From an uncultured Gammaproteobacteria bacterium (lineage in GTDB: Bacteria > Patescibacteriota > Patescibacteriia > UBA2591 > UBA6264): a stretch of DNA of 64,000 nt. The notes below the pieces were generated by a model, which worked only from the letters and a program-made list of their open reading frames with translations, searched no databases and had not been told where the DNA came from. The DNA lies in NCBI GenBank assembly GCA_964596735.1, contig CAZQVF010000001.1, positions 74,135 through 138,134 on the forward strand, given 5' to 3'. Shown one piece after another: positions 6,817 to 48,290 of this stretch. How positions within the stretch are numbered: position 1 is the first letter of the stretch; each line of letters starts with the position of its first letter. The translations under genes and the position numbers were made by a program.

Positions 6817-9800
6817 ATGATTAAAGAAAATAAAACCGGACCTGATAGGGGGGAGCCAGAGAATGAAAATCAGGAGGAGATATTTTCTCTTCAAAATAAA
6901 ATATCCATTAAGAGAGAAGCCCAAGAACAAAATAAGAGATTATTAAGAGGTAGTATCTTAGAAACAACAAATGCTCAAATTGACGAAGATATAGCCGAAT
7001 TAAACAGACAATTAGAGCAACTTGGGGTTAAAGAAGAAATCAGTCCAGAAATAGGAGTAGAAGCAATAGAAGATAGAAGGGTAGAGTTAATTCAAAAAGT
7101 AGATACGGAAAAACAAGAGTTTGACGAAGAAGGTGAATTAACCCCTGATCAAGAACAAGAGATAGCGCTAGAAGAAAGAGGGGGCTTAGTTGATATTAGC
7201 GAAAAAGCAGGCGTGGTTACCCAGAAAACAAAGGAATTATTGTCCAAAGAATTGGGTTATATTGATATTGAACCAAAAGAGATTTTTGAAAAGTTGACCC
7301 CAAAAGACTTAGATGAATTACAAATGTTAATGAAAGGGGGTAAAAGATTTGAAAAATTAGAACAAGAATTAGTTGCTTCAAGAAAAGAACTCCAAGATCT
7401 TGAAGATACTGGCATTTTTTTTAATAAAAAAGAAAAAAGAAAGAAAAAGGAGCGAATGCAAGAAATAAATCAGGAAATCAAGAAAAAAGAAAAAGAAATT
7501 AAAGAACTAAAGGAAGAGGGTAATAAAGAAGAAATAATTACTTTTTATAAAAATAAAATTAATGAAATCGCTGTTAGTCAGGGAATAGAAGAAAAATTGA
7601 CTGAAGAAAAGGCAGAAGAAATTGCTAAAAATTTACAAGAGACTATTCAACAGACCATAGATGCTCAAGCTCAAGAGGTGATAGCTAAATTTGGCTTGAA
7701 AAAGTTTGGTAAGATGGCTGGTGGAATGATTAAAAACATGGGTTTAATGTTCGGAGCGGCTGCTTTAATTGGTACCTTAGGTATAGCTACTGGTGGAGCT
7801 GGTGTGGTGGTTATGGCTGGTGGTATGGCTTTAACCCGTTTAATCGAAAAAAAGATTAGCGGAAAAATAAGAGAGGAAAAAGCGAAAAAAACCAAAGAAA
7901 AGTTTAAACAGAAATTAGAAAAAGAAAAAGACAAAGTTTTGGAATCTTTTTTTAAGGCCAAAGAAAAACTTAGAGAAAAGATGAGTGGGGTAATGAGTAA
8001 TGAAATTAGAAGACAAACCAGCAAAGAAGCCTCAGCTCTTTTAAGGGAATATAGAGACGCTAAAGTAAGTGGGAATACAGAAATTATAGAATCTAATTTA
8101 ACTGAGCTAGAAAAAGAGTTTTATTTAAGCGCTTTAACTAAAATTAAAGCAGAACATCCTAAAATTAAAGATGAGGAACAGCAGCACAATATGGCTATTC
8201 AAATGGCCATGAATTTGGCTCAATATGAAAGAGGAGAAATTGAAGGTAAGAAAAGGCTAGAAGATTTAAAAAAGGATAAACCAAAAGTTTATAAATTAGT
8301 TCAAAAATTTAATTTATTACGTAGTGGTGTTACAGATAAAAAACCAGAGGGAATGAGCAAGAAAGAGACATCACTTTGGAATAAATATAAATATGATTTA
8401 ACAAGCCTAGGAGTTGGTACGGCCATCGGTATGGCGGTTAGAACTAGTGAACTAGGTAGAGTAGCTTTTGGCGCACTTGGTGGTGTCGGGATGGGTTATA
8501 TGATGGGTGAGGCCGTGGGGAAAAGAGCAGAAAAGAAAGGGATTAAAGAGATTGAAAAAATGATTGATCAGGCCGAGGAAGTTATTGAAGACATTAGTTT
8601 TCCAGCTAATGAATTGCCTGATTTGCGAAAAAATGCCACCTTAGTTCAATCTAGATTAGAGCTAGGATTGTTAGATGTAGACCCTGTTCTTAAAAGTAGG
8701 GCTGAAAATTTTATTCATAATGTCAGGCAGGTAGAATTTGCTAATCAAAAAACACTTAATAAATTATTAGAACAACAAGAAAATAATAATAAAAAGTTAG
8801 AAAAGCAGGTTGAAAAAGATGTTACCAGAATTGAAAAGAAAACTAAAAGGCGAAGGATTTTGGCAATGGTTGGAGGAGGCTTGGCTGGTGGTTTAGCTGC
8901 GGGAGCCTTTACTGAAACAGGTAAGGATATACTTAAGGATATACGTGGATTAGGAGAAGAAGGACCAGGAATAGAACCAAGAGGGCCAGGGTCAATAGAG
9001 GGCGGGATAAAAGGAACTCCTTTTGTTGCAGCTGAATTTCCAAGCGCTCCTGATAGTTTATCTGATTCAGCTCAAGAAACATACAATCATTTAAAAAATA
9101 TTATTCAAGGAACTGAGGGAAAGCTTGGTCCAACTCTTGTCCGGGCTCAGGCTGAGGATGTGGCTGAACAATTAAAAACAGCTGCCCCTGAACAATGGGA
9201 AGAAATTTTAGAAAATTATAAAAGTGGAGATGTGGTTGAAGAAACAATTAAACAAGCATCTTCAGCCCCAGAAGCCCCTGTTCCAGAGCCGGAAGAGATA
9301 AAAATAGCCCTAAATTTAGAAAAGCCAGGAATTTCAATAGACGAATCTGCTTTTGCCAAAGAAATGCCTGAATTGGCAAATGAGCTTAAAGAATTAGAAG
9401 TAAGTTTAAAGTCATTTGACCAAAATACGTTTAACCAAATCAGAAATTTGACTGAATTAACTGACACTAATCCGGTTATTAGAGATCAGGCACTAGCGTT
9501 TTTAAAGAAATTTGAAGAAGGAGCACCTCAACTTCATGAACAAATGTTGAATGAATATGATAAAACCTTTGTTCCAGAAGCTCCAGCTCCAGAAACTCCA
9601 GGAGTCTCAGAAGAAGTTACCAAACCTTCATGGGAACAAGAAGTGGGCAGAGAAGAATTTGATTTAGAAAAGATTACTCAAGAACAATTTAATCAACTTC
9701 AAGAGAATCTTCAAGAACTTGGCCCCACCCAAGCTAAAGCAGATGCTTTGACCTTAATGGAGAAATTAAAAGAAACAGACATTGATAAATACCAGAAGAT

Positions 9801-11430
9801 GATGGAAGCACATAAGACAGGATTAGTGGAACAAAGAGACGAATTAGTTAAAGAATTAACAGGAGAGCGACCAATTACTCCCCCTGAAGCTGCTCCTGTT
9901 GAACAAGAGATAACCATTCTAAAAGAGCCTGTTACAGAAGAAACAATAATTAGTCTGGAAGCTGGTTTTGCCAAAGAATTTCCTAAATTAGCTGATAAAT
10001 TAATAGAAACAGGGCACTTCAAAGTTGATGAAAGCTTAGATACATTTGATCAATCCGCTTTTAATGAGGTTCAAAAATTGGCAGACCTTACTCCGGAAAC
10101 ACCAGATGAAGAGGTTCTTTGTGGGGAAGCAAAAGACTTTTTACAAGAATTTGAAAAGAAGTTACCAGAGGTCCATGAGAGAATGTTAGATGAGTTTGAA
10201 AAAATTGTTCCTGATCATAAGGCGTCTTTAATAGCAGAGAGAGATGCATTAATAGACGAGTTAACTGGAGAAACAACTCTGGCAGTTGAACACCTTGATT
10301 ACCAGGGCGGTAACAGTGTTTGGCGTGAAGTTGAAAATCAATTACAAGGAAGAGCTGGGTTTAAAGATTTATTCACCGGCGGGGATGAAGCAGAACAAAC
10401 TCATGCTATTGACTATTTTAAAGACAAAATTGTAGCTAATCCTCAAGAATACGGGTTGGCCGAGGCGGTTGATCCAGATGAATTAACACCAGAACACTTA
10501 AAAAGTGTAGACTGGGATAAATTACTTTCTGTTAAAGAGGGAGAAATTGATAAAGCCTTCCCAAATTTAACCGAAGAAGCAAAGCAAAATATTATAGAGA
10601 ATAATAGAATTTTACAAGAATATGTTAGTAGAACAGGAGAAGCCTTAGATACAGATACGGTTGACCAGATTTTAGAAGATGTTAAAGAAGCAGGAGGCGT
10701 TGATGAATATTTAAAACCAGAAGAAATAGTAAGACCAGAAGAAGTTGAACAACCAGAACCGGTTGATTTAAGTGGGATGAAGTGGGAAGACATGACACCA
10801 GCCGAACAAGAATTACTTGAAAATTGGGGAGAATATTTATTCATAGGTGACCGGGGCAGAGCAGCTGAGGCAGCTCAAGAGGCAGCTAAGGATTTTCTAG
10901 ATAGTCAACCACCAGAAGTGTATAACAAATATTCTGATGTTAAAGAAGTAATTCAGTATATTCGCATGGATGATTTAAATGAAGGCCTTTTCAATCGTGG
11001 CGCAGATACAGAAGACTTAATGGCCGGTGTTCAAAAATTAGCTGAAACACATGATCTCTCTGATACGGAGACCAAGCTATTTTCTAATTGGTTGGCCGGA
11101 GAAGACGGTATATTAAAAAAGAATGATTTTAGGCATGTAATAACAAATAAAATTATTGACCCAGAAAAGTTTAGTGATGAAATACAATTTTTTAAAGAGG
11201 GATACGGGGGCTCAGAAGAACTTCCCGACACTTTGACTTGGGAACCAAGACATATTTATACTGGAGAAGGGGCAGACAGAATAAAGCAATTGGTTAATAT
11301 AAGGGCAGTTGAAGGTGGTTGTCAAATAGATTCTACTGGTGATGGAATGCCTGATCAAGATGTTGTTCATCAAAGATTAGCAGTTAAACAAATGATGAGC
11401 AAAGAAGTGATAAATACAGCAGAGGCATAA
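6817..11430 (+). CDS. giant acidic coiled-coil protein with Gly-rich hydrophobic segments (hypothetical)
   Basis: 1537-aa uninterrupted ORF with a K/E-rich coiled-coil N-terminus. It has two glycine-rich hydrophobic stretches (GAAALIGTLGIATGGAGVVVMAGGMALT; ILAMVGGGLAGGLAAGAF) and internal ~100-aa repeats (FAKEMPELANEL... / FAKEFPKLADKL...; ELTGERPITPPEAAPVEQ / ELTGETTLAVE). Confidence 0.7.
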   Translation: MIKENKTGPDRGEPENENQEEIFSLQNKISIKREAQEQNKRLLRGSILETTNAQIDEDIAELNRQLEQLGVKEEISPEIGVEAIEDRRVELIQKVDTEKQEFDEEGELTPDQEQEIALEERGGLVDISEKAGVVTQKTKELLSKELGYIDIEPKEIFEKLTPKDLDELQMLMKGGKRFEKLEQELVASRKELQDLEDTGIFFNKKEKRKKKERMQEINQEIKKKEKEIKELKEEGNKEEIITFYKNKINEIAVSQGIEEKLTEEKAEEIAKNLQETIQQTIDAQAQEVIAKFGLKKFGKMAGGMIKNMGLMFGAAALIGTLGIATGGAGVVVMAGGMALTRLIEKKISGKIREEKAKKTKEKFKQKLEKEKDKVLESFFKAKEKLREKMSGVMSNEIRRQTSKEASALLREYRDAKVSGNTEIIESNLTELEKEFYLSALTKIKAEHPKIKDEEQQHNMAIQMAMNLAQYERGEIEGKKRLEDLKKDKPKVYKLVQKFNLLRSGVTDKKPEGMSKKETSLWNKYKYDLTSLGVGTAIGMAVRTSELGRVAFGALGGVGMGYMMGEAVGKRAEKKGIKEIEKMIDQAEEVIEDISFPANELPDLRKNATLVQSRLELGLLDVDPVLKSRAENFIHNVRQVEFANQKTLNKLLEQQENNNKKLEKQVEKDVTRIEKKTKRRRILAMVGGGLAGGLAAGAFTETGKDILKDIRGLGEEGPGIEPRGPGSIEGGIKGTPFVAAEFPSAPDSLSDSAQETYNHLKNIIQGTEGKLGPTLVRAQAEDVAEQLKTAAPEQWEEILENYKSGDVVEETIKQASSAPEAPVPEPEEIKIALNLEKPGISIDESAFAKEMPELANELKELEVSLKSFDQNTFNQIRNLTELTDTNPVIRDQALAFLKKFEEGAPQLHEQMLNEYDKTFVPEAPAPETPGVSEEVTKPSWEQEVGREEFDLEKITQEQFNQLQENLQELGPTQAKADALTLMEKLKETDIDKYQKMMEAHKTGLVEQRDELVKELTGERPITPPEAAPVEQEITILKEPVTEETIISLEAGFAKEFPKLADKLIETGHFKVDESLDTFDQSAFNEVQKLADLTPETPDEEVLCGEAKDFLQEFEKKLPEVHERMLDEFEKIVPDHKASLIAERDALIDELTGETTLAVEHLDYQGGNSVWREVENQLQGRAGFKDLFTGGDEAEQTHAIDYFKDKIVANPQEYGLAEAVDPDELTPEHLKSVDWDKLLSVKEGEIDKAFPNLTEEAKQNIIENNRILQEYVSRTGEALDTDTVDQILEDVKEAGGVDEYLKPEEIVRPEEVEQPEPVDLSGMKWEDMTPAEQELLENWGEYLFIGDRGRAAEAAQEAAKDFLDSQPPEVYNKYSDVKEVIQYIRMDDLNEGLFNRGADTEDLMAGVQKLAETHDLSDTETKLFSNWLAGEDGILKKNDFRHVITNKIIDPEKFSDEIQFFKEGYGGSEELPDTLTWEPRHIYTGEGADRIKQLVNIRAVEGGCQIDSTGDGMPDQDVVHQRLAVKQMMSKEVINTAEA

Positions 11431-12255: not shown

Positions 12256-14334
<2,079 letters not shown>

Positions 14335-21545: not shown

Positions 21546-21935
21546 ATGGCAAGAATTGTTGGTGTTAATTTACCCTCTAATAAAAGAACAGAAATAGGCT
21601 TAACCTATATTTTTGGCATTGGTCGCAACACCTCAAATAAGATTTTAAAACAAACTAAGATTAATCCAGACAAACGGGTTAAAGATCTAACCACTTCAGA
21701 AATTGAACAATTAAGAAAGATTATAGAAAACAAGTATCGGACAGAAGGAACTTTAAAAAGAGATATTTCCAGTAATATTAAGCGGTTAAAAGAGATTGGC
21801 TGTTATCGCGGTTTGCGACATAGTCTTCGTTTGCCTGTTAGGGGACAGCGAACAAAAACAAACAGTAGAACCATTAGGGGTAATGTCCGTCGAACCATGG
21901 GTAGTGGGCGCCGGGCCGCAGCCAAAAAGACATAG
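21546..21935 (+). CDS. rpsM: 30S ribosomal protein S13
   Basis: [26 protein letters not shown]. Confidence 0.95.
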
Positions 21936-21945
21936 AAATTAGTTT

Positions 21946-22326
21946 ATGGTAAAAAAGAAGAAATCTAAAATAATTAAAAACGTTCCTCGAGGCCATGCCT
22001 ATATTAAGGCTACCTATAACAATACAATCGTTACCTTAACTGATCCATCTGGCAATGTTTTGGCTTGGGCCAGCGCTGGTAAATTGGGGTTTAAAGGCCC
22101 TAAAAAGGCTACCCCTTATGCCGCAAGCGTTATTGTCAGGGATGTTGTTGAAAGGAGCAAAGAAACAGGACTAAAAGAGGTCCAAGTTTTTATTAAAGGC
22201 GTGGGTATGGGTCGAGAATCAGCGGTCAGATCACTTTATTCTAATGGTCTGAATATTTTGTCTATTAAAGATGTTACCCCATTACCCCACAATGGTTGTC
22301 GCCCCAGAAAGGCAAGAAGAGTTTAA
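21946..22326 (+). CDS. rpsK: 30S ribosomal protein S11
   Basis: [30 protein letters not shown]. Confidence 0.95.
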
Positions 22327-22335
22327 TTAAATCTT

Positions 22336-22962
22336 ATGTTAACTAGTCCCCAATGTAAAATTTGTCGTCGAGAAGGTAAAAAACTTTTTTTAAAAGGGGA
22401 TCGTTGTAATTCTCAAAAATGTGTTTTAATTAAGAAAAAATATCCACCAGGAGCACACGGACCTAAGGGGTATGGTCGCATATCAGATTACGGCCGCCAA
22501 TTAAGAGAAAAACAGAAATTAAGACGTTCTTATTATGTTTCAGAGAAACAATTTAAAAATTATTTTACCAAGGCCAAACAAGCAGAGGGGAACACAGAAG
22601 AGAACTTTTTAAGACTCTTAGAAAAAAGACTAGACAATGTTGTTTATCGGGCAGGTTTTGCCAGTTCTCGTAGACAAGCCCGACAACTTATCAGTCACGG
22701 CAATATTTTGGTTAATGGACGGCGAGTTGATGTCCCGTCTTATCAAGTGACAACAGGGGATGCTATTCAACCTAAAGACAAAAAAGCGATTATAGGAAAG
22801 GTAAAAGAAAAAATAGGGCAGGTTAAAGATAAAGACACCCTGCCAGCCTGGACTAGCCTAGATAAGAAAAAACTTGAAATCAAGATTTTAAAAGATCCCG
22901 CTCCAGAGGACCTACCTCAGACATTTGAAACAGAGTTAATTATTGGTTTTTATAGTCGATAA
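22336..22962 (+). CDS. rpsD: 30S ribosomal protein S4
   Basis: CKICRREGKKLFLKGDRC zinc ribbon; S4 domain. Confidence 0.95.
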   Translation: MLTSPQCKICRREGKKLFLKGDRCNSQKCVLIKKKYPPGAHGPKGYGRISDYGRQLREKQKLRRSYYVSEKQFKNYFTKAKQAEGNTEENFLRLLEKRLDNVVYRAGFASSRRQARQLISHGNILVNGRRVDVPSYQVTTGDAIQPKDKKAIIGKVKEKIGQVKDKDTLPAWTSLDKKKLEIKILKDPAPEDLPQTFETELIIGFYSR

Positions 22963-22995
22963 TATATTTAATATTTTATTTTAATATAGTATTTT

Positions 22996-23880
22996 ATGGA
23001 GAATTTTTTACCAACAAAAGTTGAATCTCAACTAGATCCTAAAAATAAGAATAAAGGTCAAATTTTTATTGAACCCTGTTGGCCAGGCTATGGTATTACC
23101 TGGGGCAATGCTCTAAGAAGAGTTTTGTTAACTTCTTTATCAGGAGCAGCCGTAACAGCCGTAAAGATAAAAGGAGTCAAGTATGAATTTTCTACATTAG
23201 AAGGAGTTAAAGAAGATGTTTTAGAAATTATTTTAAATCTAAAATCTCTTCGTTTAAAAATTCTTGCTGAAAAAGACGAATCCATTAAACTAAGCTTAAA
23301 GGTAGGTGGAGAGAAAAAGATTAAAGCAGGTAGTATTGAAAAATCATCAGAGGTGGAAATAGTTAACCCTGATTTATTAATTGCCACCTTAACAGACAAG
23401 AAAGTCAAGTTGGAAATGGATATTTGGGTGGCTAAGGGATATGGTTGGGTTGCTTCAGAAGAAAAATCGCGAGCGGGTTTAGAAATCGGTACAATTGTTA
23501 CCGATTCAATTTTTAGTCCGGTTTTAAATGTTTCTGTCAATGTAGAAAATATGAGAGTAGGAAAAAAAACAGATTTTGACAAGATTGTTCTAGGAATTGA
23601 AACTGACGGCAGTATTTCACCAATCCAGGCATTTTTAAAGGCCAGTCAATTATTAAAGGAACAATTTGACAGTCTATTAAATTTAGGAGAAAAAATTGCT
23701 AAAAAAGCAGTAAAGAAAAAAGTTAAAAAACCAGTCAAAAAAGCAGTAAAGAAAAAAGTTAAAAAACCAGTCAAAAAAGCAGTAAATAAAAAAGTTAAAA
23801 AGGCGGTTAAAAAACCAGTCAAAAAAGCAGTAAAGAAAAAGGTTAAAAAGAAAACAGCCAAGAAAAAGACTAAAAAATAA
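22996..23880 (+). CDS. rpoA: DNA-directed RNA polymerase alpha subunit (N-terminal domain only; lysine-rich repeat tail in place of the alpha-CTD)
   Basis: N-terminal dimerisation domain (GYGITWGNALRRVLLTSLSGAAVTAVKIKGVKYEFSTLEGVKEDVLEIILNLK). The C-terminus is AVKKKVKKPVKK 12-aa repeats with no recognisable helix-hairpin-helix alpha-CTD. Confidence 0.85.
   Translation: MENFLPTKVESQLDPKNKNKGQIFIEPCWPGYGITWGNALRRVLLTSLSGAAVTAVKIKGVKYEFSTLEGVKEDVLEIILNLKSLRLKILAEKDESIKLSLKVGGEKKIKAGSIEKSSEVEIVNPDLLIATLTDKKVKLEMDIWVAKGYGWVASEEKSRAGLEIGTIVTDSIFSPVLNVSVNVENMRVGKKTDFDKIVLGIETDGSISPIQAFLKASQLLKEQFDSLLNLGEKIAKKAVKKKVKKPVKKAVKKKVKKPVKKAVNKKVKKAVKKPVKKAVKKKVKKKTAKKKTKK
23707..23850 (+). repeat. 36-nt coding tandem repeat (about 4 copies) encoding AVKKKVKKPVKK
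   Basis: GCAGTAAAGAAAAAAGTTAAAAAACCAGTCAAAAAA repeated in tandem inside the rpoA 3' end. Confidence 0.7.
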
Positions 23881-23885
23881 TTTCT

Positions 23886-24236
23886 ATGCGACACAGAAAA
23901 AAGGGGAAAAGTTTAGGTCGTAAAGTTGGCCCGCGAAAAGCATTGCTTAAAGGGTTGGCTTTGAGTTTTGTTTTGCACGAGAAGATTAAGACGACTGAAG
24001 CCAAGGCCAAAGCGGTAAAGCCAATTATTGAACATTTAATTACGCGAGCCAAAGAGAATAATCTAAATAATTATCGTCGAATAAATTCATATTTACAGAG
24101 TCGAGAGGCCACTAAAAAAATGCTTGAAGAAATTGGGCCAAAATACAAGGATCGCCCAGGTGGTTATTGCCGTATTGTTAAATTAGGACCAAGAAAAGGG
24201 GATATGGCTCAAATGGTTATTTTAGAATTAGTTTAA
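23886..24236 (+). CDS. rplQ: 50S ribosomal protein L17
   Basis: MRHRKKGKSLGRKVGPRKALL...; position after rpoA. Confidence 0.9.
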   Translation: MRHRKKGKSLGRKVGPRKALLKGLALSFVLHEKIKTTEAKAKAVKPIIEHLITRAKENNLNNYRRINSYLQSREATKKMLEEIGPKYKDRPGGYCRIVKLGPRKGDMAQMVILELV

Positions 24237-24266
24237 AATATGTAATATTTTAGAATTAGTTTAAAT

Positions 24267-24623
24267 ATGTTGAAAATTGACAGAAAAACACATACTATTG
24301 ATGCCACAGATCAGGTTTTAGGCCGTTTAGCTACACAAATAGCCACTCTTTTGATTGGCAAAGGAAAAGAAAGCTATCGACCAAATATTGACAATGGAGA
24401 TATTGTCATAGTCAAGAACACAAAAAAGATGAAGATTACAGGAAAGAAATTAGACCAAAAGCTCTATTATCACCACAGCGGTTATCCAGGCGGTTTAAAA
24501 ACAAAAAAAATGGGAGATGTTTTCAAAAGCGACCCAAATCAAGTTTTACACAAAGCAGTTTCTAATATGTTACCCAAGAATAAGCTAAGAAAACCAAGGA
24601 TTAAAAGACTAAGATTTATTTGA
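24267..24623 (+). CDS. rplM: 50S ribosomal protein L13
   Basis: THTIDATDQVLGRLATQIATLLIGKGK...YYHHSGYPGGLK. Confidence 0.9.
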   Translation: MLKIDRKTHTIDATDQVLGRLATQIATLLIGKGKESYRPNIDNGDIVIVKNTKKMKITGKKLDQKLYYHHSGYPGGLKTKKMGDVFKSDPNQVLHKAVSNMLPKNKLRKPRIKRLRFI

Positions 24624-30590: not shown

Positions 30591-31490
30591 ATGAAAACAA
30601 AAGATTTTAACCGAAAAAAAGAAGACTATTACAAAGGAGAGGCAGAAAAATGGGATCTTAGAGAGAGCTCATCTCGTCCCAGTCCAGAGAATGTTAAGCA
30701 TTATAATCAATTGGTGAAATCAGTTCTAGGCAATAAGAAAAATCCTAGAATTGTTGTTTTAGGATCAACGCCAGAAATCAGAGAGATGCTCTATAAATAC
30801 TATTTTCTTAATAAAGCAAAGATTATTTGTTTAGAACTTTTGCCAGCCATGTATTATGGAATGTCTAATTTAGTTAAACATAAATCTCCAAATGAAAAAT
30901 TTGTTCAAAGTGATTGGTTAAAAATGCCCTTTAAAAAAAACAGTATTGATATTTTTATTGGAGATTTAATCACGGGTAACATTTATAACAAGAAAGATAG
31001 AGAAAAATTATTAAGATTGATTAAAAAATGCTTAAAAAAGAATGGAGTTTTTCTTGAAAGACATCTTTACATAACTCCAAGGGTAAAAATAAAAGATGTT
31101 AAAAAACATTTATTTAGTTTTGTTCCAAAGATTATAAATGAAAAAATAAGCATTAATGCTGCGGCTACTTCTTTTTTGGCTAATTTGGTTGTTGCAAGTT
31201 GGTATCAGAACATAGAGAGGAAGCTTTCTATGATTTATTTTGAAAAAGAAATTAGAAAATTAAAAAAATATTTTCAAAAAAAGAATTTATCCTCTCAAGA
31301 CAGAATTGCCAAAGCCATATTTGATCACTTTCAGCTTTTAGGAGGAAAAAAAAGATATTGGACTTATGGGACCAAGGAACAGGAAGAAAAAGAATTAAGA
31401 GAATATTTTAAAATAGAAAAGAGATTATACGCTAAAGACTTTTATTCTGCGTCTAATGTGCCAATTTATTTATTAAGACCTAAAAAGTGA
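30591..31490 (+). CDS. array paralog 1: class I SAM-MTase-like protein (LGATPE family)
   Basis: Shares the family blocks: N-terminal W..W....RPS..E, RIVVLGSTPEIREML (motif I position), CLELLPAMYYGM (post-I), SDWLKMPFKKNSIDIFIGD (motif II-like), CLKKNGVFL (motif III-like), C-terminal IYLLRPKK. Confidence 0.8.
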   Translation: MKTKDFNRKKEDYYKGEAEKWDLRESSSRPSPENVKHYNQLVKSVLGNKKNPRIVVLGSTPEIREMLYKYYFLNKAKIICLELLPAMYYGMSNLVKHKSPNEKFVQSDWLKMPFKKNSIDIFIGDLITGNIYNKKDREKLLRLIKKCLKKNGVFLERHLYITPRVKIKDVKKHLFSFVPKIINEKISINAAATSFLANLVVASWYQNIERKLSMIYFEKEIRKLKKYFQKKNLSSQDRIAKAIFDHFQLLGGKKRYWTYGTKEQEEKELREYFKIEKRLYAKDFYSASNVPIYLLRPKK

Positions 31491-31491
31491 T

Positions 31492-32319
31492 ATGAAATCA
31501 TGGGATAATATTAAAAAATCAGAATGGCGAGGATTTGCTGAAAAATGGAGAGCTCTTAATCCCCCCTATAAACCCTCGAGAGAAAGAATAGATATTTATC
31601 ATTATTTAATTAAAAAATATGTTAAAGGCAATAAAGCTTTAGTTTTAGGGGCAACGCCTGAGATTAGAGATCTTTTAGCCAAACTAAAATTCAAAGTAAC
31701 TCTATTAGATATTAGCTTGCCAATGGTTAGGGCAATGACTTTTTTAAAAAAGACCAGGAATAAAGAAAAAATTGTTATTGGCAATTGGCTTAAGGCTAGG
31801 TTTAATGAAAAGTATGACCTAGTTATTGGTGATTCAGTGATTAATAATCTTTTGCCTGGTCAATACACTAAGTTTTTTAAACAGGTACAGAGATTTTTAA
31901 AAAATGACGGTATTTTTATTTCTCAAGGCGTTTTTTTATCAAAACCAATAAGTAAGCATAGAATTTCTATTAAACAGATTATTAATAAGGCAAAGAATAG
32001 GCCTGATTATTATAGAATTTATTCAAATAAGGCTTATGACTATTTAACATGGTCGGTTTCTCAGACTAAAAAGCATTTAGCTAATTTTGGAACATTGAAT
32101 GAGATCTGGCGCCAAAAATTGGAAAATGGACAGATAAGCAAAAAAGAATTTAAATTATTAGATTTTGATCTTCCTGAAGACTTGACAATCTCGTTTTTTA
32201 CCAAAAAAGAATTTGAAAGAACCCTTTGTAAATTTTGGCAAATACTTGATCAAACTCATGAAAAAAGCCATCGGGTTCACAAAGATTTTTATCGCATTTA
32301 TGTTTTAAAAAAGAAATAA
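31492..32319 (+). CDS. array paralog 2 (LGATPE MTase-like)
   Basis: ALVLGATPEIRDLLAK, TLLDISLPMVRAM, GNWLKARFNEKYDLVIGDSVINNL, FLKNDGIFIS, ...IYVLKKK; starts 1 nt after the previous stop. Confidence 0.85.
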   Translation: MKSWDNIKKSEWRGFAEKWRALNPPYKPSRERIDIYHYLIKKYVKGNKALVLGATPEIRDLLAKLKFKVTLLDISLPMVRAMTFLKKTRNKEKIVIGNWLKARFNEKYDLVIGDSVINNLLPGQYTKFFKQVQRFLKNDGIFISQGVFLSKPISKHRISIKQIINKAKNRPDYYRIYSNKAYDYLTWSVSQTKKHLANFGTLNEIWRQKLENGQISKKEFKLLDFDLPEDLTISFFTKKEFERTLCKFWQILDQTHEKSHRVHKDFYRIYVLKKK

Positions 32320-32320
32320 G

Positions 32321-33169
32321 ATGACAGTAAAAAATCCGAAAACAGAAACATGGAGAAAATTTATTGAAGGCTGGTCTAAATTGACCAGTCCGGGCCGACC
32401 AACAAAAAAAGAAATCATTATTTATAAAGAATTCGGATTGGCAAAACTAAAGAAAAAAGGGGCAAAAACTTTAGTCCTTGGCGCCACTCCTGAAATAAGG
32501 GATATGTTGGCAAAATATAATAATCTACAGGTTCATTTAATTGATATTAATATTGATAATTGTTTAGCAATGAGCGAGTTGATGGAAAATAAAACAGCAA
32601 AAGATGAAGAAACATGGATGAAGGCTAATTGGCTAAATAATCCTTTACCAGAAAATTATTTTGATTTAATTTACGGAGATTTTGTTGTTTGCAATGTTCC
32701 CTTTGAAAAGCAGAACAAATTTTTAGCCAATATTAAAGGATGGTTAAAAAAAGAAGGGTTGTTTATTACCCGTTGTACAAGCATAACCTCAGAATACAAA
32801 GAATTATCTTTAAGGGAATTTTGTCAGTTATTCAAAGATAAGCCGGTTAATCTAAAGACAATTAATCATTTTTGGGAATTAGGCGTTTACTTGGGAGAAA
32901 TTGCTGAAGAAAACAGGTTTAGTCCGGGCGTTTTTTATAAACGCTTAAGAAATTATCTTAGAAAACATCCTAATAAAAACATAGATAAAATATTAGAGGC
33001 TGGGGGATTTCTTTATCCCTTAGAATGGACCTGGTCTCTTTGTCCCAAAAAAAGAATTGAAAATTTGCTTTCAAAACATTTTGTGACTAAAAAAAGAGAA
33101 TTTGACACTAAAATGAATTTTATTTATCCGAATTTTTATCCTATTTATTGCTTGAAACCTAAAAAATAA
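32321..33169 (+). CDS. array paralog 3 (LGATPE MTase-like)
   Basis: TLVLGATPEIRDMLAKY, HLIDINIDNCLAM, ANWLNNPLPENYFDLIYGDFVVCNV, WLKKEGLFITR, IYCLKPKK. Confidence 0.85.
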   Translation: MTVKNPKTETWRKFIEGWSKLTSPGRPTKKEIIIYKEFGLAKLKKKGAKTLVLGATPEIRDMLAKYNNLQVHLIDINIDNCLAMSELMENKTAKDEETWMKANWLNNPLPENYFDLIYGDFVVCNVPFEKQNKFLANIKGWLKKEGLFITRCTSITSEYKELSLREFCQLFKDKPVNLKTINHFWELGVYLGEIAEENRFSPGVFYKRLRNYLRKHPNKNIDKILEAGGFLYPLEWTWSLCPKKRIENLLSKHFVTKKREFDTKMNFIYPNFYPIYCLKPKK

Positions 33170-33170
33170 T

Positions 33171-34040
33171 ATGGAAAAAAGAACAAAAATGTGGCAAAAG
33201 ATTACCCGAGATTATTGTAAGTTTGTTATTCCAAATCGGCCCAGTCTTGACGATACAAGGAATTATGCCATAGCCATTAATCAAGTATTAAAAAATAAAA
33301 AAGAACCCAAAATATTAGTGATGGGCTCAACCCCAGAGATACGCAGATTTTTGTTTACCTACACCTGTCTTTTTAATGCTCAAGTGTATTGCGTTGATTT
33401 TAGTCCAAATATGTATAAGTCAATGACAGATTTTATAAACAAAGCAGAGTTAAAAGAAAAATATATCAAGGCAAGCTGGTTAAAAACAGGGCTTAAAGAC
33501 AATTTTTTTGATTTAGCAGTGGGCGATGAAGTTATTTGTAATATTGAACCCAAAAAGCATAAAGGGCTTTTTCAAGAAACATCAAGAATCCTTAAAAAAG
33601 ACGGCTATTGGGTCACTCGACATAACATGTATCTTCCGAATCAAGCCAAACCCAAAACAATTATTTTAAACATTGTTAAAGATTTAAAACAAAAGAAATA
33701 CAGTTTTCAAGAAGCAATTCATTATCTTTTCATCACTTTATTTTACAGTCTGGTTCAAACAAACAAACAGCATCGACTTAATCAAGCAGAACAGATGAAA
33801 GAAATGAGAAAGGTATATAAAACCTTAAAAAATGATTTAGATAAAAGAGTATTAAAAGAATTGATTAAACATTTTCAAGGAAATTGGCAATCTACCTATA
33901 GTTATCATTGGTATGTATTGTCTAAAAAAGACAGTGAAAAAGAATTAAGAGAATTTTTTACTATTAAAAAGATTCTAACTCCTCGCGATTATATTACAGC
34001 CAAGAATTCACCGATTTATTTATTGAAAAATAGAAAATAA
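33171..34040 (+). CDS. array paralog 4 (LGATPE MTase-like)
   Basis: ILVMGSTPEIRRFL, YCVDFSPNMYKSM, ASWLKTGLKDNFFDLAVGDEVICNI, ILKKDGYWVTR, IYLLKNRK. Confidence 0.85.
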   Translation: MEKRTKMWQKITRDYCKFVIPNRPSLDDTRNYAIAINQVLKNKKEPKILVMGSTPEIRRFLFTYTCLFNAQVYCVDFSPNMYKSMTDFINKAELKEKYIKASWLKTGLKDNFFDLAVGDEVICNIEPKKHKGLFQETSRILKKDGYWVTRHNMYLPNQAKPKTIILNIVKDLKQKKYSFQEAIHYLFITLFYSLVQTNKQHRLNQAEQMKEMRKVYKTLKNDLDKRVLKELIKHFQGNWQSTYSYHWYVLSKKDSEKELREFFTIKKILTPRDYITAKNSPIYLLKNRK

Positions 34041-34057
34041 TAAGATATTTTAATTAT

Positions 34058-34902
34058 ATGGTAATTACAAAAAAACGAAAAAACGTTCAAGCCTGGTCAA
34101 AACAAATGGCACAAAATAGAAAAAAAGGAGACCACCAACTGCTCCTAGTATAAGCGAGCAGAAGATTTATGAAAAATTTTTAAAACAAGCTTTAAAAAAT
34201 AAAGAAAACCCTAAGGTTTTAATTTTAGGAGTTACCCCAGAGCTTCGCAATATTGCCTTAAAAAATAATTGCCAGGTTGTGTCTGTTGACATTAGTCGGG
34301 AAATAATAAAAGCAATGAAACCCTCAATAAAATATAAAGGGTTAAAAAGAGAAAAGATTATTAATGCTAACTGGCTTGCTGTTTCTTTTCCAAAGAATAG
34401 TTTTGATTTGGTAATGGGAGATGCACCCTTAACCAATCTTCTTTCTATTCATGATCTTAGAAAATTATTATTTAAAGTCCGGAGAGTATTAAAGCCAAGG
34501 GGTTTTTTCTTAATAAGAGAACTCATTCATTTATCAAATAAAAAAGCTCCATTTAAAAAAATAGTTTCTGATTATCGGAAGAATAAGATAAAATGGGAAG
34601 ATTTTTTTATGGACCTTAGATTTTATACGTTTTTTAATAAAGCCTATAATCCAAAAAATAACCTTCTTTCCGCTGATAAGATTTTTCAGGAAATTGAAAA
34701 AAAATATAAGCAAGGCGAGCTGACAAAGAAAGAATATCAAAGAATTATGATTCTTGAAAATCGAATGAAGAATTTAGTTTTATTTAAAGAAAAATTTATG
34801 AAATTAATCAAAGAAAATTTTTCCATTATTTCTATTAAAACAGATAAAGAATTTAAATTCTGTCAATATTTACCAATTTATTTGTTGAAAAATAGAAAGT
34901 AA
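34058..34902 (+). pseudogene. array paralog 5, frameshifted (or -1 frameshift-dependent) copy
   Basis: The N-terminus (MVITKKRKNVQAWSKQMAQN) reads in one frame to a TAA at 34151. The family-conserved continuation (RRPPTAPSISEQKIYEKF...VLILGVTPELRNIAL...) lies in the -1 frame, beginning inside a GAAAAAAAGG A7 run at 34120-34126. The track only reports the GTG-started C-terminal 207-aa piece. Confidence 0.7.
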
Positions 34903-34903
34903 T

Positions 34904-35749
34904 ATGGCTAAGAAAAAATTTAGTATAAAAATGAAACAGAGCTGGTTTCAAATTGCTGAGAAATGGAGAGAATATAATTATCCAGTTAAACCTTCTCCCA
35001 TGGAGACAAGATTTTTTGAAAAAGAAATAAAGGATTTATTAAAAAGGGAAAAGAGAATTAAAGCTTTAGTTTTAGGGGCAACCCCTGAATTTAGAGATTT
35101 ATTGGCTAAGCATAAAATAGACACTGTTTTAATTGATAATAATTTAACCTCTGTCAAGGCAATGACTTTTTTAATGAAAAGAAAGACTAAAAAAGAAAAA
35201 ATAGTGGTTGGGGATTGGTTAAAGATGCCTTTTAAAGAAAATACCTTTGATATAGTTTTCAGTGATTCTGCTCAGGACAATATTAAGTTTAAAAATTTCA
35301 ATAAGTTTTTTAATAATGTTTACCAAATTTTAAAGCCAGAGGGATATTGGTTTTTTGCTGCGGTTAATGTGGAAAAAAATCAAAGTATTTCTTTAAAAAA
35401 ATACATTAAAAAATACAAAGAAAAACCAAAGATTTTTAAAGATTTTAGAAATTTTGCTTCTTATTTTTTTCGAGTCGGTCGCGGTCCAGATTTTTATAAA
35501 CCCAAAACCAGAAGTTTTGATTTTGCTAAAATTGATCAAAGGGTAAAGGCCCTTATTGAGGAAGGTAAAATTTCTTCTAAAGCCCTTAAAGATATTTGTT
35601 TTCATTTAAATTATGAACAGGTTTTAATTGGTCAAACCGATTTTAAGAAAATGTTAAAAAAGAATTTTAATATTTTTAAAGAAATGAAAAAAGATAAACA
35701 TCCGGGCATGGAAATAAAGTGGGCGGCAATTTTAAAACCAAAGAAATAA
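34904..35749 (+). CDS. array paralog 6 (LGATPE MTase-like)
   Basis: ALVLGATPEFRDLLAKH, VLIDNNLTSVKAM, GDWLKMPFKENTFDIVFSDSAQDNI, ILKPEGYWFFA, ...AILKPKK. Confidence 0.85.
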   Translation: MAKKKFSIKMKQSWFQIAEKWREYNYPVKPSPMETRFFEKEIKDLLKREKRIKALVLGATPEFRDLLAKHKIDTVLIDNNLTSVKAMTFLMKRKTKKEKIVVGDWLKMPFKENTFDIVFSDSAQDNIKFKNFNKFFNNVYQILKPEGYWFFAAVNVEKNQSISLKKYIKKYKEKPKIFKDFRNFASYFFRVGRGPDFYKPKTRSFDFAKIDQRVKALIEEGKISSKALKDICFHLNYEQVLIGQTDFKKMLKKNFNIFKEMKKDKHPGMEIKWAAILKPKK

Positions 35750-35750
35750 T

Positions 35751-36638
35751 ATGGCCAAAAAGAAATTAGACAATCCTATTTGGGACGCAAAACAACAAAA
35801 ATGGTGGGAGTTTTTTTGGGGAGGAGTTAAAGCTCCTTGGCGACCGACAAAAAAGGAAATTAAATTTTGGGAAGGGAAAATTCAACAAGCTTTTAAAGAA
35901 AAAGATTTTTTACGTGTTTTAATTTTAGGGGCTACTCCAGAATTTAGAGACATGCTGACCAGGTATAAAGATAAAACAGAAGTGACCCTATTAGACGCAA
36001 ATCCGGCAGTTAAAGCAGCCATGGATAAGCTAAGGAAAAAGAGAAATTCTAAGGAAAGAATAGTTTGGGGTGATTGGCTAAAGATGCCCTTACCGTCTAA
36101 TTATTTTGACATTGTTTTTAGTGATGAAGTATTTGAGAATATTGCTTTGGAAAATCATGACAAGTTACATCAAAATATTAAACGGGTTTTGAAAAAAGAT
36201 GGTTATTTTTTAGATGGTCGGATTTGTTTAGAAGACTTTTTTAAACATCCCTTACATCTAGAACAAGTTTTAAGAAAATATAAAAGGGAGCCAAGGTTTT
36301 TCCACGATTCTTATAACCGGCTTTGGTATTTGTATCGTTTATGCCCTTCAGAAAAGCTCTTTTATAGTAAAAAAGAGCAAGCAGTTTTAATGAATAAAAA
36401 GGCAGCAGAAAAAGTATTTAATAGGGCTAAAAAAATAGGCATAAAAAACCCAAAATATTTAAATTGGGATCCAAGATTAGATTATAAGGAGCTTGATTAC
36501 AAGGAGATAGATTTAGCTAGTTTAAAAAGAGTAAAGTCAATGATTGGAAAATATTTTAAAATAGAAAAAACTTATCAGGATTTATTTCATCCAGTAATGA
36601 AAATAAAATATAATTTTGTCTGCCGTCCTAAAGAATAA
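35751..36638 (+). CDS. array paralog 7 (LGATPE MTase-like)
   Basis: VLILGATPEFRDMLTRY, TLLDANPAVKAAM, GDWLKMPLPSNYFDIVFSDEVFENI, VLKKDGYFLDG, ...FVCRPKE. Confidence 0.85.
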   Translation: MAKKKLDNPIWDAKQQKWWEFFWGGVKAPWRPTKKEIKFWEGKIQQAFKEKDFLRVLILGATPEFRDMLTRYKDKTEVTLLDANPAVKAAMDKLRKKRNSKERIVWGDWLKMPLPSNYFDIVFSDEVFENIALENHDKLHQNIKRVLKKDGYFLDGRICLEDFFKHPLHLEQVLRKYKREPRFFHDSYNRLWYLYRLCPSEKLFYSKKEQAVLMNKKAAEKVFNRAKKIGIKNPKYLNWDPRLDYKELDYKEIDLASLKRVKSMIGKYFKIEKTYQDLFHPVMKIKYNFVCRPKE

Positions 36639-36641
36639 AAT

Positions 36642-37499
36642 ATGGCAAAAAAAGGTTTAATTAATGGAAAAGAATGGGTGGATTATTTAAAATTTTGGTC
36701 GATTATGGCTCCGCCGGCCCGGCCCTCTAGTTTTGATATAAAGATTTGGGAGACATATATTAAAAAAATATTAAGACAAAAAAGAGATATTAAAGCTTTA
36801 GTTTTTGGCGCCACTCCTGAAATCCGCGATTTATTAGCTAAATATAAGATTTTCACTACTCTTTTAGATGTTAATCCAGCCATGATTAAAGGGTTGATGA
36901 AATTCATGAAGTATAAGAAGCAACGAAACGAGAAAGTAATTATTGATAATTGGCTAAAAATTAGAGAATTGTTTTCTGAAAATTCTTTTGATATAGTGAT
37001 GGGCCATGATTTTTTTAATAATATTCCTTGGAGTTCTCATAATAAATTAGCCAGCAGCATTAAATGGGTTTTAAAAAAAGATGGCTATGGATTAATTGTT
37101 TCTCCAATTTTAAGAAAAACAAAAAATTTGTCTAGCGAGCATTTTGTTACGCTATATAAAAAAAATCCAAAATACTTTAAAGAATTTTGTCATCGTTGGT
37201 ATGTAGTAGATGTTTTAAAAAAATTAGATTATAACAAAAGAACCAGACAGTTTTTTATAAAAAAAATAAAAGAACGTTTAATCAAAGAAGCAGAAAAACA
37301 AGGTTTGTCAGAAAAGGATATTAATCAGATGTGGGTTTTTAAAACATTTAATATAGCTGACAATTATATTGGAGTTCACCCGCCCTTAAAAGATTTATTA
37401 AATGTTTTTAAGAAATATTTTAAAATTGAGAAAATGTCTTATTGGTCAAAACAGGGGAACAAATCCCATTTTAATTTTGTTTTAAGACCTAAGAAATAA
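36642..37499 (+). CDS. array paralog 8 (LGATPE MTase-like)
   Basis: ALVFGATPEIRDLLAKY, TLLDVNPAMIKGLM, DNWLKIRELFSENSFDIVMGHDFFNNI, VLKKDGYGLIV, ...FVLRPKK. Confidence 0.85.
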   Translation: MAKKGLINGKEWVDYLKFWSIMAPPARPSSFDIKIWETYIKKILRQKRDIKALVFGATPEIRDLLAKYKIFTTLLDVNPAMIKGLMKFMKYKKQRNEKVIIDNWLKIRELFSENSFDIVMGHDFFNNIPWSSHNKLASSIKWVLKKDGYGLIVSPILRKTKNLSSEHFVTLYKKNPKYFKEFCHRWYVVDVLKKLDYNKRTRQFFIKKIKERLIKEAEKQGLSEKDINQMWVFKTFNIADNYIGVHPPLKDLLNVFKKYFKIEKMSYWSKQGNKSHFNFVLRPKK

Positions 37500-37502
37500 A
37501 AT

Positions 37503-38378
37503 ATGGCAAAACATAAGATAGACAATCCAGTTTGGCAAAAAAAAGAAGAATGGTGGTATAATGTTTGGAAAAAAGTTGAGCCACCATTTCATCCTTCAAA
37601 AGGGGAGGTGATGTTTTATGAAAAGGCAGTGAAAAAAACATTGAAACGAAAAAATCCAAAGGTTCTTGTTTTAGGAGCAACACCAGAAATCCGTGATATG
37701 TTAGCTAAATACAAAAAATTAGACGTTTATATTATAGACGCTGATGTTCCAGTTTATCGAGCCATGACCCGGTTAATGAAAAGAAAGAACAAACGAGAAA
37801 AATTAGTAGTTGGAGATTGGCTAAAAATGCCATTTAAAAAAGATACCTTTGATCTGAGTTTGAGCCACGGAGCTTTTTCTGTAATTAGTCTAAAAAATCA
37901 TGAAAGATTTTATAACAATATTAAAAGAGTAATTAAAAAAGATGGTTATATTGTAATGAGTCGGGTGAATGTCGAACCCTTTTTAAAAGAGCCAATTAGT
38001 TTTAAACAGATTATTGATAGATATAAAGAGGATCCAAAATATTTTAAAAGCCTTCAAAACAGAGTTTATATTTTATACCAATTGACCAGCCGACCAGGCT
38101 TATATAATTACAAAACCCAGAGCATTAAATATCATGTCATGGCTAGAAAATTAAGAGATTATGCTAGAAAACAAGGACTTTCAGAAAAGCAAATAAAAGG
38201 TCTGTATTTTACCCCAGATTTTGATGTGAATCTTAAAATTGATGACACAGAAATACAAACCCTTAAAAGACTAAAGACAATGATTAAAAAACATTTTATA
38301 ATTAAAGAAATATATCAGGATGATTATCACCCGGTGGCCAAAATATTTATTGATTTCTTATGTCAAAAAAGAAAATAG
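37503..38378 (+). CDS. array paralog 9 (LGATPE MTase-like); recent duplicate of paralog 10
   Basis: VLVLGATPEIRDMLAKY, YIIDADVPVYRAM, GDWLKMPFKKDTFDLSLSHGAFSVI, VIKKDGYIVMS, ...IFIDFLCQKRK; ends with the same ...FIDFLCQKRK tail as paralog 10. Confidence 0.85.
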   Translation: MAKHKIDNPVWQKKEEWWYNVWKKVEPPFHPSKGEVMFYEKAVKKTLKRKNPKVLVLGATPEIRDMLAKYKKLDVYIIDADVPVYRAMTRLMKRKNKREKLVVGDWLKMPFKKDTFDLSLSHGAFSVISLKNHERFYNNIKRVIKKDGYIVMSRVNVEPFLKEPISFKQIIDRYKEDPKYFKSLQNRVYILYQLTSRPGLYNYKTQSIKYHVMARKLRDYARKQGLSEKQIKGLYFTPDFDVNLKIDDTEIQTLKRLKTMIKKHFIIKEIYQDDYHPVAKIFIDFLCQKRK

Positions 38379-39238
38379 ACAACCCAATTTGGCAGAAAAA
38401 AGAAGAATGGTGGTATAATGTTTGGAAAAAAGTTGAACCGCCCTTTTGTCCTTCAAAGGGGCAGATTAAGTTTTATGAAAAGATAATAAAGAACAAAATA
38501 CTTAAACGTAAAAATCCCAGAATTCTTGTCTTAGGAGTCACACCGCAGATTCGTGATTTATTGGCTAAATACAAGAAACTAGATGTTTATTTAATTGATA
38601 TTGATGTGCCGGTTTATCGAGCGATGACTAGATTAGTGAAGAAAAAAAATCCTAGAGAAAAATTAATCGTCGGTGATTGGTTAAAAATGCCTTTTGAAAA
38701 AAATTATTTTGATTTAATCATGGCTCATAGTTCGTTTTCTGTCATTAGTTTAAAACACCATAAGTTGTTTTATCAGAATATTAAAAGGGTTCTTAAAAAA
38801 GATGGTTATGTTTTAATGAGTCGGGGAATATTGGAATTTGCTTTTAAAGACCCGATTAATTTTAAACAATTTTTTAATAAATACAAAAAAGACCCTAAAT
38901 ATTTTAAAAATTTTCAAAACAGAACATATATTTTATACCGATTAATCAATCGACCAGGAATCTATGACAGAAGGACACAGGGATTTAAATGGCATGTTAT
39001 GGCCAAAGGGTTGATGGATTATGGAAAAAGACAAGGATTTTCAGAAAAACAAATAAAAAGTCTTTATTTTCTTCCTGAGATAGGGCCAGAAGCAGTTTAT
39101 ACAGATACTGATATTGAAAGTGCAAAAAAAGTTAAATCAATGATTAGAAAACATTTTATAATCAAACAAATTCATCAGGATAATTATCACCCCATTGCTA
39201 AAATATTTATTGATTTTTTATGTCAAAAAAGAAAATAA
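38360..39238 (+). CDS. array paralog 10 (LGATPE MTase-like)
   Basis: About 70% identical by eye to paralog 9 along its whole length. The ATG start sits inside the last codons of paralog 9 (ATGTCAAAAAAGAAAATAG overlap). Confidence 0.85.
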   Translation: MSKKKIDNPIWQKKEEWWYNVWKKVEPPFCPSKGQIKFYEKIIKNKILKRKNPRILVLGVTPQIRDLLAKYKKLDVYLIDIDVPVYRAMTRLVKKKNPREKLIVGDWLKMPFEKNYFDLIMAHSSFSVISLKHHKLFYQNIKRVLKKDGYVLMSRGILEFAFKDPINFKQFFNKYKKDPKYFKNFQNRTYILYRLINRPGIYDRRTQGFKWHVMAKGLMDYGKRQGFSEKQIKSLYFLPEIGPEAVYTDTDIESAKKVKSMIRKHFIIKQIHQDNYHPIAKIFIDFLCQKRK

Positions 39239-40071: not shown

Positions 40072-40110
40072 AAATAAAGAAAAAGCCGTTTTGTAGCGGT
40101 TTGAAAATTT

Positions 40111-40965: not shown

Positions 40966-41019
40966 GAACCCTTCGCTACGCTCAGGAACCTTGAAATTAA
41001 AACTTTATTTTATAAATAT
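40964..41019 (+). promoter_or_regulatory. conserved CTTGAAATTAAA promoter-like element (internal to the array)
   Basis: AAGAACCCTTCGCTACGCTCAGGAACCTTGAAATTAAAACTTTATTTTATAAAT in the 74-nt gap between paralogs 12 and 13; same architecture as the copies at 1879, 4839 and 19449. Confidence 0.55.
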
Positions 41020-41039
41020 TAAGGTAGTTTAATTATAAT

Positions 41040-41891: not shown

Positions 41892-41892
41892 T

Positions 41893-42744: not shown

Positions 42745-42745
42745 C

Positions 42746-43621: not shown

Positions 43622-43622
43622 T

Positions 43623-44465: not shown

Positions 44466-44470
44466 AGTCT

Positions 44471-47444: not shown

Positions 47445-47446
47445 AT

Positions 47447-48289: not shown

Positions 48290-48290
48290 A

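Follow-up and report, generated by a model that had tools for sequence, protein, structure and literature searches.

A lysine-rich repeat tail in place of the C-terminal domain in the RNA polymerase alpha subunit of a patescibacterial genome

Among bacteria, the C-terminal domain (alpha-CTD) of the RNA polymerase alpha subunit is usually regarded as a universal module. It hangs on a flexible linker, docks activators and touches DNA in the A/T-rich minor groove of the UP element, upstream of the -35 element; UP elements drive much of rRNA promoter strength, and the alpha-CTD is the main contact for classical activators. The rpoA gene of contig CAZQVF010000001.1, located at 22996..23880 (+ strand, stop codon included) of the 64-kb window (the whole stretch of DNA that was analysed, 64,000 nucleotides), encodes an alpha subunit of 294 amino acids (aa) that ends in lysine-rich repeats. 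What occupies the place of the alpha-CTD in this protein, how widespread is the arrangement, and what might such a tail do at promoters?

The alpha subunit and its repeat tail

The gene was identified from the open reading frame (ORF) list together with Pfam, NCBIfam and PDB matches. Its N-terminal dimerisation and assembly domain (alpha-NTD), as delimited by AlphaFold2 and Pfam, covers residues 1-237 (22996..23706, +). The Rpb3/Rpb11-type dimerisation domain PF01193 matched residues 26-224 (E = 2.5e-19) and enclosed the RpoA insert domain, PF01000, at residues 56-174 (E = 2.6e-29). The NCBIfam rpoA equivalog TIGR02027 scored 251.6 against a cutoff of 227.8, with only positions 2-236 of the 298-position model aligned. 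Additionally, 60 solved RpoA chains in the PDB matched the protein (best E = 4.5e-53), and all of these alignments ended at approximately query residue 225-257. In the AlphaFold2 model, computed from a 40-sequence alignment, the pLDDT of the alpha-NTD was mostly above 90, and its last helix spanned residues 209-237. The Pfam and NCBIfam matches agree with the first-pass annotation, which had described a 294-aa RpoA with a normal N-terminal domain. This ORF holds the one alpha-NTD of the whole six-frame window, and no second rpoA was found among the 64 kb.

No Pfam match of RpoA to the alpha-CTD family PF03118 was obtained up to E ≤ 10. Our own alpha-CTD hidden Markov model (HMM), iterated from one patescibacterial alpha-CTD (89 sequences), also found nothing in the six frames of the window (best E = 0.23), in agreement with the earlier statement that no alpha-CTD is recognisable. 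Moreover, rplQ starts 5 nt past the rpoA stop codon, leaving no space for an alpha-CTD, and the gene order rpsM-rpsK-rpsD-rpoA-rplQ-rplM is conserved (the ORFs at 21546..24236 cover rpsM to rplQ). The first-pass annotation had also considered that an alpha-CTD might be encoded by a gene of its own. The search for one was limited to the window and to ±3 kb around 66 alpha-CTD-less related loci, and no such ORF was found there; an alpha-CTD in another frame or in an adjoining gene is ruled out for these regions. The window protein is an rpoA orthologue that has lost a domain, lacking the alpha-CTD that marks the canonical family, and it contradicts the usual assumption that this domain is universal in bacteria.

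In place of the linker and alpha-CTD, the protein carries a lysine-rich tail (residues 232-294, 23689..23877, +; KIAKKAVKKKVKKPVKK...KKKTAKKKTKK), delimited by composition, pLDDT and the lack of PF03118. The sequence past approximately residue 231 reads KIAKKAVKKKVKKPVKKAVKKKVKKPVKKAVNKKVKKAVKKPVKKAVKKKVKKKTAKKKTKK. Lysine accounts for 36 of the last 66 residues (55%), accompanied by one acidic residue, giving the tail a net charge of about +35 and the alpha dimer one of about +70. The tail is built from [A/P/K]VKK tetrapeptides within 12-aa repeats. At the DNA level, Tandem Repeats Finder reported a 36-nt tandem array of 3.5 copies with 91% matches (23701..23826, +) and a 12-nt sub-period repeated 12.5 times (23700-23849, +); the 36-nt period is the one from which the first-pass annotation had derived the 12-aa repeats. 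Residues 241-294 showed a pLDDT below 50 and no secondary structure in AlphaFold2, and the tail is therefore predicted to be intrinsically disordered.

Could base composition by itself have produced such a tail? The GC content of the window is 33.5%, which is AT-rich without being extreme, contrary to the earlier description of an extremely AT-rich genome. The AAA share of lysine codons was 78% in the tail and 74% in the rest of the window, so codon usage in the tail is ordinary. A 40-aa stretch with at least 40% K/R occurred in only 4 of the 71 non-shadow ORFs of the window, and the RpoA tail reached 60%. Because comparable stretches are confined to these four ORFs, AT bias alone is insufficient; it was set aside as the sole explanation and retained as a contributing factor. 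Three of the four encode the nucleic-acid enzymes RpoA, RpoD and GyrB. An internal K/R-rich stretch was also seen at approximately residue 344 of a 1537-aa ORF (6817..11430, +) that had no Pfam match at E ≤ 0.001.

Tails of related alpha subunits

In a comparison with the closest clusters, of which 120 were listed, approximately 110 of the closest (50-100% identity, 238-320 aa) all lacked PF03118 and, where named, went by Patescibacteria or Parcubacteria; among the 120 listed, P0112 and P0115 alone carried the domain. The closest tails were mutually unalignable, yet contained 40-57% K/R and ended in a K run, and the terminal KK was nearly invariant within the K-rich clade. More distant listed clusters had an acidic spacer followed by a terminal KKKRGRPKK, and intermediate forms, with RGRP embedded in K-rich tails, were present at 57-65% identity (P0080, P0084, P0097 and P0099). 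Whether RpoA of other members of the candidate phyla radiation (CPR) shares the tail, a point left for checking by the first-pass annotation, can thus be answered: the alpha-CTD-less architecture was found in more than 100 independent relatives, with K-rich tails in the closest, and also recurred in several assemblies of one and the same species.

A second, exhaustive search was made with the N-terminal domain alone against representatives of 50%-identity clusters, and the 149 best hits were examined. An alpha-CTD was present in 85 of them. The remainder fell into four groups, with a K-rich tail, an acidic linker and a K patch, an acidic linker and an AT-hook-like end, or nearly no tail; some obviously frameshifted sequences were found beside the nearly tail-less ones. 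Among the representatives, P0122 (526 aa) and P0133 (664 aa) contained two different alpha-NTD copies per polypeptide, in P0133 apparently with a CTD-like segment after each copy. These are possibly natural alpha-alpha fusions, recalling the two alpha paralogues of Francisella. The internal duplication in P0121 (569 aa) is exact and has the look of an assembly artefact.

The scan of species-representative genomes yielded 80 loci, and all credibly named ones were Patescibacteria (Parcubacteria and Falkow-, Komeili-, Kuenen-, Veblen-, Moran- and Nealsonbacteria). Several metagenome-assembled genomes (MAGs) labelled 'binchicken' (L002, L003, L007, L011, L044, L048 and others) are titled 'uncultured Gammaproteobacteria', 'Bdellovibrionales' or 'Saccharibacteria', and one 'SMAG' record (L061) is titled Bathyarchaeia; as these records carry rpoA operons of the Patescibacteria type, their titles look unreliable. 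The alpha-CTD was absent from 66 of the 80 loci and present in the other 14. A K-rich tail was found at 19 loci, a count that includes L012, whose 8-residue tail passed the K/R cutoff, and a terminal [KR]GRP motif, almost always KKRGRPKK, at 23. The other 24 comprised 21 tails with an acidic spacer and a K patch and 3 very short ones.

On a neighbour-joining tree of the N-terminal domain only (228 aa), the tail classes were clade-structured. The window protein grouped with L001 (91% identity) in a clade formed by L001-L012 and L021, and 12 of its 13 members had K-rich tails. Lineages with an alpha-CTD were interspersed among those without, for example within Moranbacteria, which suggests more than one loss, although a tree of a single 228-aa domain cannot count the events.

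Basic character was retained across these classes. At least 7 K/R within some 15-residue stretch were present in 88% of the 66 alpha-CTD-less tails, and at least 8 K/R in the last 20 residues in 68% of them, compared with 18% of 296 control ORFs from the same loci, which are already rich in ribosomal proteins. The Pfam AT_hook model aligned to the terminal motif in four of six tested proteins at 9.8-13.1 bits, below the gathering threshold of 17.4, a shortfall that a model of only 13 residues would lead one to expect. The alpha-CTD-less patescibacterial proteins have a common layout, in which a spacer leads from the N-terminal domain to a basic element at the end, and the loss of the alpha-CTD affects much of a major bacterial radiation.

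Variation among strains bears on both the history of the tail and the quality of the assembly. The window sequence and L083 (294 aa) differ from L081 and L082 (266 aa) by one 84-nt in-frame gap, and all other columns of 261 are identical. The missing 28-codon segment was placed by DNA alignment at 23722..23805 (+), its position within the repeats being arbitrary. The 90%-identity cluster that holds the window protein has members of 266, 270, 282, 294 and 296 aa; two of its three 266-aa members (P0392 and P0396) have an N-terminal domain 99.6-100% identical to that of the window protein and a tail of 38 residues. The frame and the KKKTAKKKTKK terminus were kept in every length variant, and all observed indels were in frame. 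Copy number of the repeat does differ between strains, as the first-pass annotation had suggested might be checked, and the 84-nt indel fits slippage or unequal recombination.

In a rival account the missing domain is an artefact: misassembly of the repeats, or a truncation or frameshift of the gene, would hide an alpha-CTD that the true protein has. Repeats of 36 nt can be collapsed by short-read assemblers; such collapse may affect the exact copy number, and the difference between the 266- and 294-aa forms may partly reflect it. For the missing domain itself, this explanation is extremely improbable: rplQ follows within 5 nt in a conserved operon order, the exact 294-aa product is encoded on contigs of independent samples, none of the window's six frames gives an alpha-CTD signal, and the same architecture recurs in over 100 related clusters and in 66 genomes of different species. 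Misassembly truncating the C-terminus, which the first-pass annotation had named as a threat to its reading, is effectively refuted as the cause.

Possible contacts of the basic arms

AT-hooks and peptides of the SPKK/AKKP type bind DNA in the minor groove, with a preference for A/T. On this background, the tail may be a disordered polycationic arm that provides non-specific upstream DNA contacts, probably biased towards A/T and the minor groove, in place of the alpha-CTD; we give this reading an even chance of being right. The first-pass annotation had likewise proposed that a histone-H1-like basic tail binds AT-rich DNA in place of the alpha-CTD. Its description of the tail as H1-like was sustained for the composition, and the tail is predicted to be disordered; the binding is something that we infer. 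That idea has become considerably more plausible because sister clades carry a canonical-looking AT-hook, KKRGRPKK, at this place and 88% of the tails keep a dense basic patch. Of all the indirect evidence, this AT-hook-like element in sister clades, located where the window protein has its tail, weighs most. It suggests that tethered affinity for A/T-rich DNA was kept, while sequence reading and activator docking were lost.

The proposed mechanism is as follows. The ancestral linker and helix-hairpin-helix domain would have been replaced by a disordered arm of polylysine type, approximately 55-60 residues long, with the alpha-NTD assembling the core enzyme as usual. Two arms would emerge at the usual exit of the alpha-CTD linkers and bind DNA upstream of the -35 element, electrostatically and, in the manner of SPKK, AKKP and AT-hook peptides, preferring the A/T minor groove. 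They would supply a generic, UP-element-like boost in affinity, reading no sequence and offering no docking surface for class I or class II activators. The repeat-encoded tail would grow and shrink through slippage, and what selection appears to maintain is its charge and basic C-terminus rather than an exact sequence.

The primary sigma factor may add to the same effect. The rpoD gene (62454..63815, +), downstream of dnaG, encodes regions 1.1, 1.2, 2, 3 and 4 from residue 105 on (Pfam), and these are preceded by a K/R-rich N-terminal extension of approximately 100 aa with 55% K/R (62454..62753, +; translation and Pfam). An extension of at least 30 aa with at least 35% K/R was found in 93 of the 120 closest homologue clusters of sigma. 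Some of the extensions carry PVKK or AKKA repeats, and that of one relative only (P0384) has a precomputed Pfam match to the histone-H1-like family HC2 (PF07382). Judged by its sequence, the holoenzyme carries three basic arms, one per alpha copy and a third on sigma. In addition, the translated GyrB (gene 12265..14334, +) begins with a K-rich extension of approximately 35 aa (12265..12369, +) that precedes the ATPase domain; K/R make up 0.40 of its first 40 aa, and its Pfam domains begin at residue 62. The K-rich arms on RpoA, RpoD and GyrB indicate a preferential placement on DNA-transacting proteins in this organism and suggest a general strategy for such proteins in the lineage.

These same appendages can be read differently. 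The RpoA tail may be a functional arm whose main target is something other than promoter-upstream DNA, such as nascent RNA or rRNA (transcription-translation coupling), the nucleoid or a condensate, or acidic partners such as sigma region 1.1. Similar extensions on sigma and GyrB point to general nucleic-acid tethering rather than a promoter-specific role, and lysine repeats in actinobacteria serve processivity and complex stability, not site recognition (PMC5714199). Many sister-clade tails also combine an acidic spacer with a basic end, which is compatible with intramolecular or partner interactions. However, the tail sits exactly at the position of the alpha-CTD linker, from which the alpha-CTD reaches upstream DNA, the alternative in sister clades is an AT-hook-like motif and AT-hooks read the minor groove of double-stranded DNA, and no data point to RNA specifically. 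We consider a different main target unlikely, though slightly less so than the neutral explanation weighed below.

Several observations weigh against upstream DNA contact as the role of the arm. In the window, ten TTGA[AC]A-N16-18-TAnnnT sites (+ strand only) had an upstream AT content of 0.60-0.92 against a background of 0.66; they are too few to conclude from, and the scan is too small to show any upstream A/T signal or any connection with the TTGAAA element to which the first-pass annotation had referred. The window tail is without a GRP core. A separate alpha-CTD or a second rpoA is formally possible beyond the window and the ±3 kb surroundings of the related loci. Furthermore, four relatives (L010, L012, L066 and L073) have tails of only 8-18 residues, and the tail is therefore not obligatory. 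Tail length differs between near-identical strains (38 vs 66 residues), suggesting loose constraint. Finally, the median GC content was 0.336 in the K-rich class, 0.396 in the AT-hook class and 0.436 in the alpha-CTD class, values not corrected for phylogeny; because K-rich tails go with the lowest GC, mutational bias may contribute.

Much of this would also be expected if the tail were largely neutral, low-complexity filler, the alpha-CTD having been lost in a reduced, activator-poor genome and AT bias and slippage having inflated an AAA/AAG-rich 3' end. The nearly tail-less relatives, the low GC of the K-rich class and the ordinary lysine codon usage of the tail are in keeping with such filler, as are the 36-nt repeats, whose 91% identity implies recent expansion, and the 84-nt indel between otherwise identical strains. 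Conversely, a basic patch was kept in 88% of the 66 tails across deep divergence although the tail sequence itself is unconserved, the K-rich clade hardly varies in its terminal KK, and several clades keep KKRGRPKK right at the C-terminal end. Every observed indel is in frame, and AT bias does not generally produce such stretches, as only 4 of 71 ORFs have them, three of these being DNA-transacting. Neutral filler is thus improbable, and a DNA-contacting arm remains the reading that we prefer.

A broader and more tentative proposal, which we think somewhat doubtful, is that a large part of Patescibacteria has dropped the system of alpha-CTD, UP element and activator docking, promoters being engaged by disordered polycationic or AT-hook arms on the two alpha copies and on the primary sigma factor. 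If true, this would be a distinct, activator-poor mode of initiation, in which charge and minor-groove peptides, and not a folded domain, keep hold of A/T-rich upstream DNA. As the arms are encoded by slippage-prone repeats, the affinity of RNA polymerase for DNA could then be tuned population-wide through repeat number.

The remaining features of the window lie outside this argument. Directly 5' of rpoA is rpsD (S4; 22336..22962, +), assigned from the ORF list and from the Pfam annotation of two identical loci, L081 and L083; rplQ (L17; 23886..24236, +) was assigned from the ORF list and its sequence, with PF01196 on the same gene in these two loci. A 28-nt direct repeat (1.9 copies, 96% matches) at 24218..24270 covers both the stop of rplQ and the start of rplM; the final rplQ codons and the stop (TTAGAATTAGTTTAA) occur a second time directly before the rplM ATG. 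Further downstream, a head-to-tail array of approximately 17 paralogous genes of about 275-300 aa, including one 556-aa double-domain fusion, occupies 30591..46427 (+); all five sampled genes matched class-I S-adenosylmethionine (SAM) methyltransferase models (Methyltransf_11/25/31). The array is followed by a NIF3-like gene and a radical-SAM gene (46494..49208). At 52948..56625 (+), an intein bearing a LAGLIDADG homing endonuclease (residues ~439-831) interrupts a pyruvate phosphate dikinase/PEP-utilising enzyme.

Comparison with known systems

Compared with the canonical RpoA of E. coli, B. subtilis and Thermus, the window protein has an orthologous alpha-NTD (E of approximately 1e-45 to 1e-53 against solved chains), the same position between rpsD and rplQ, and the same combination of an assembly domain and a flexible tether, at the end of which a DNA-contacting element would sit here too. 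The spacer and basic end of its relatives mirror the canonical order of N-terminal domain, linker and alpha-CTD. In the canonical protein, however, a folded helix-hairpin-helix domain (PF03118) reads UP elements and serves activators such as CRP and Spx as a docking site. With a disordered polylysine arm instead, sequence-specific UP reading and activator docking through the alpha-CTD cannot occur. Where the alpha-CTD was replaced clade-wide, class I-type activation through it cannot exist, and this absence fits the very small regulatory repertoires of these organisms. Our search of the literature on CPR/Patescibacteria, and more generally on bacterial alpha subunits without their C-terminal domain, turned up no account of this variant, be it RpoA lacking the alpha-CTD or RpoA bearing an AT-hook or lysine tail; subscription journals lay mostly outside it, so a prior description is possible. 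The architecture is relevant to annotation and promoter modelling in CPR genomes.

Laboratory truncations correspond essentially to the N-terminal part of the window protein. When E. coli alpha is truncated at approximately residue 235 (alpha 1-235), an active core assembles, and the responses to UP elements and activators are lost. B. subtilis polymerase with truncated alpha (RpoA-del) can bind DNA and elongate, but the expression of genes for ribosome synthesis and carbon sources is lost (PMC4495994). Such truncations show growth and regulatory defects, whereas the loss described here arose in nature, holds across a clade and goes together with a new basic tail. It amounts to a natural experiment on the minimal alpha-CTD function that has to be kept, which may be tethered affinity for A/T-rich DNA.

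In composition, the tail resembles the C-terminal domain of histone H1, Chlamydia Hc1/Hc2, mycobacterial HupB, Streptomyces HupS, actinobacterial TopA and Pseudomonas AlgP, which have short repeats rich in K, A, P and V. Like these segments, it is predicted to be disordered, is very highly positively charged and sits on a DNA-transacting protein; with 55% Lys, [A/P/K]VKK repeats and a pLDDT below 50, it also matches the composition expected of H1-like segments (at least about 40% Lys, short tandem repeats rich in A, P, V and T, and disorder). In actinobacterial TopA, the lysine repeats stabilise the enzyme-DNA complex (PMC5714199). No match of the RpoA tail to Pfam HC2 (PF07382) or to linker-histone models was obtained at E ≤ 10. 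The likeness is compositional and functional rather than one of homology, and the host protein here is an RNA polymerase subunit of Patescibacteria. As for the AT-hook (HMGA-type, PF02178), the KKRGRPKK of sister clades combines the RGRP core with basic flanks and would address the same A/T minor-groove surface as the alpha-CTD; in the window RpoA, PF02178 gave no match at E ≤ 10, and the GRP core is missing.

Assembly subunits that naturally lack an alpha-CTD are also known outside bacteria, namely the alpha-like archaeal Rpo3 (RpoD) and eukaryotic Rpb3/AC40. Unlike archaeal Rpo3, however, the window RpoA is of bacterial type: it scored above the TIGR02027 cutoff, matched the archaeal RpoD model only in part (E = 1e-5), and is encoded in a bacterial ribosomal-protein operon.

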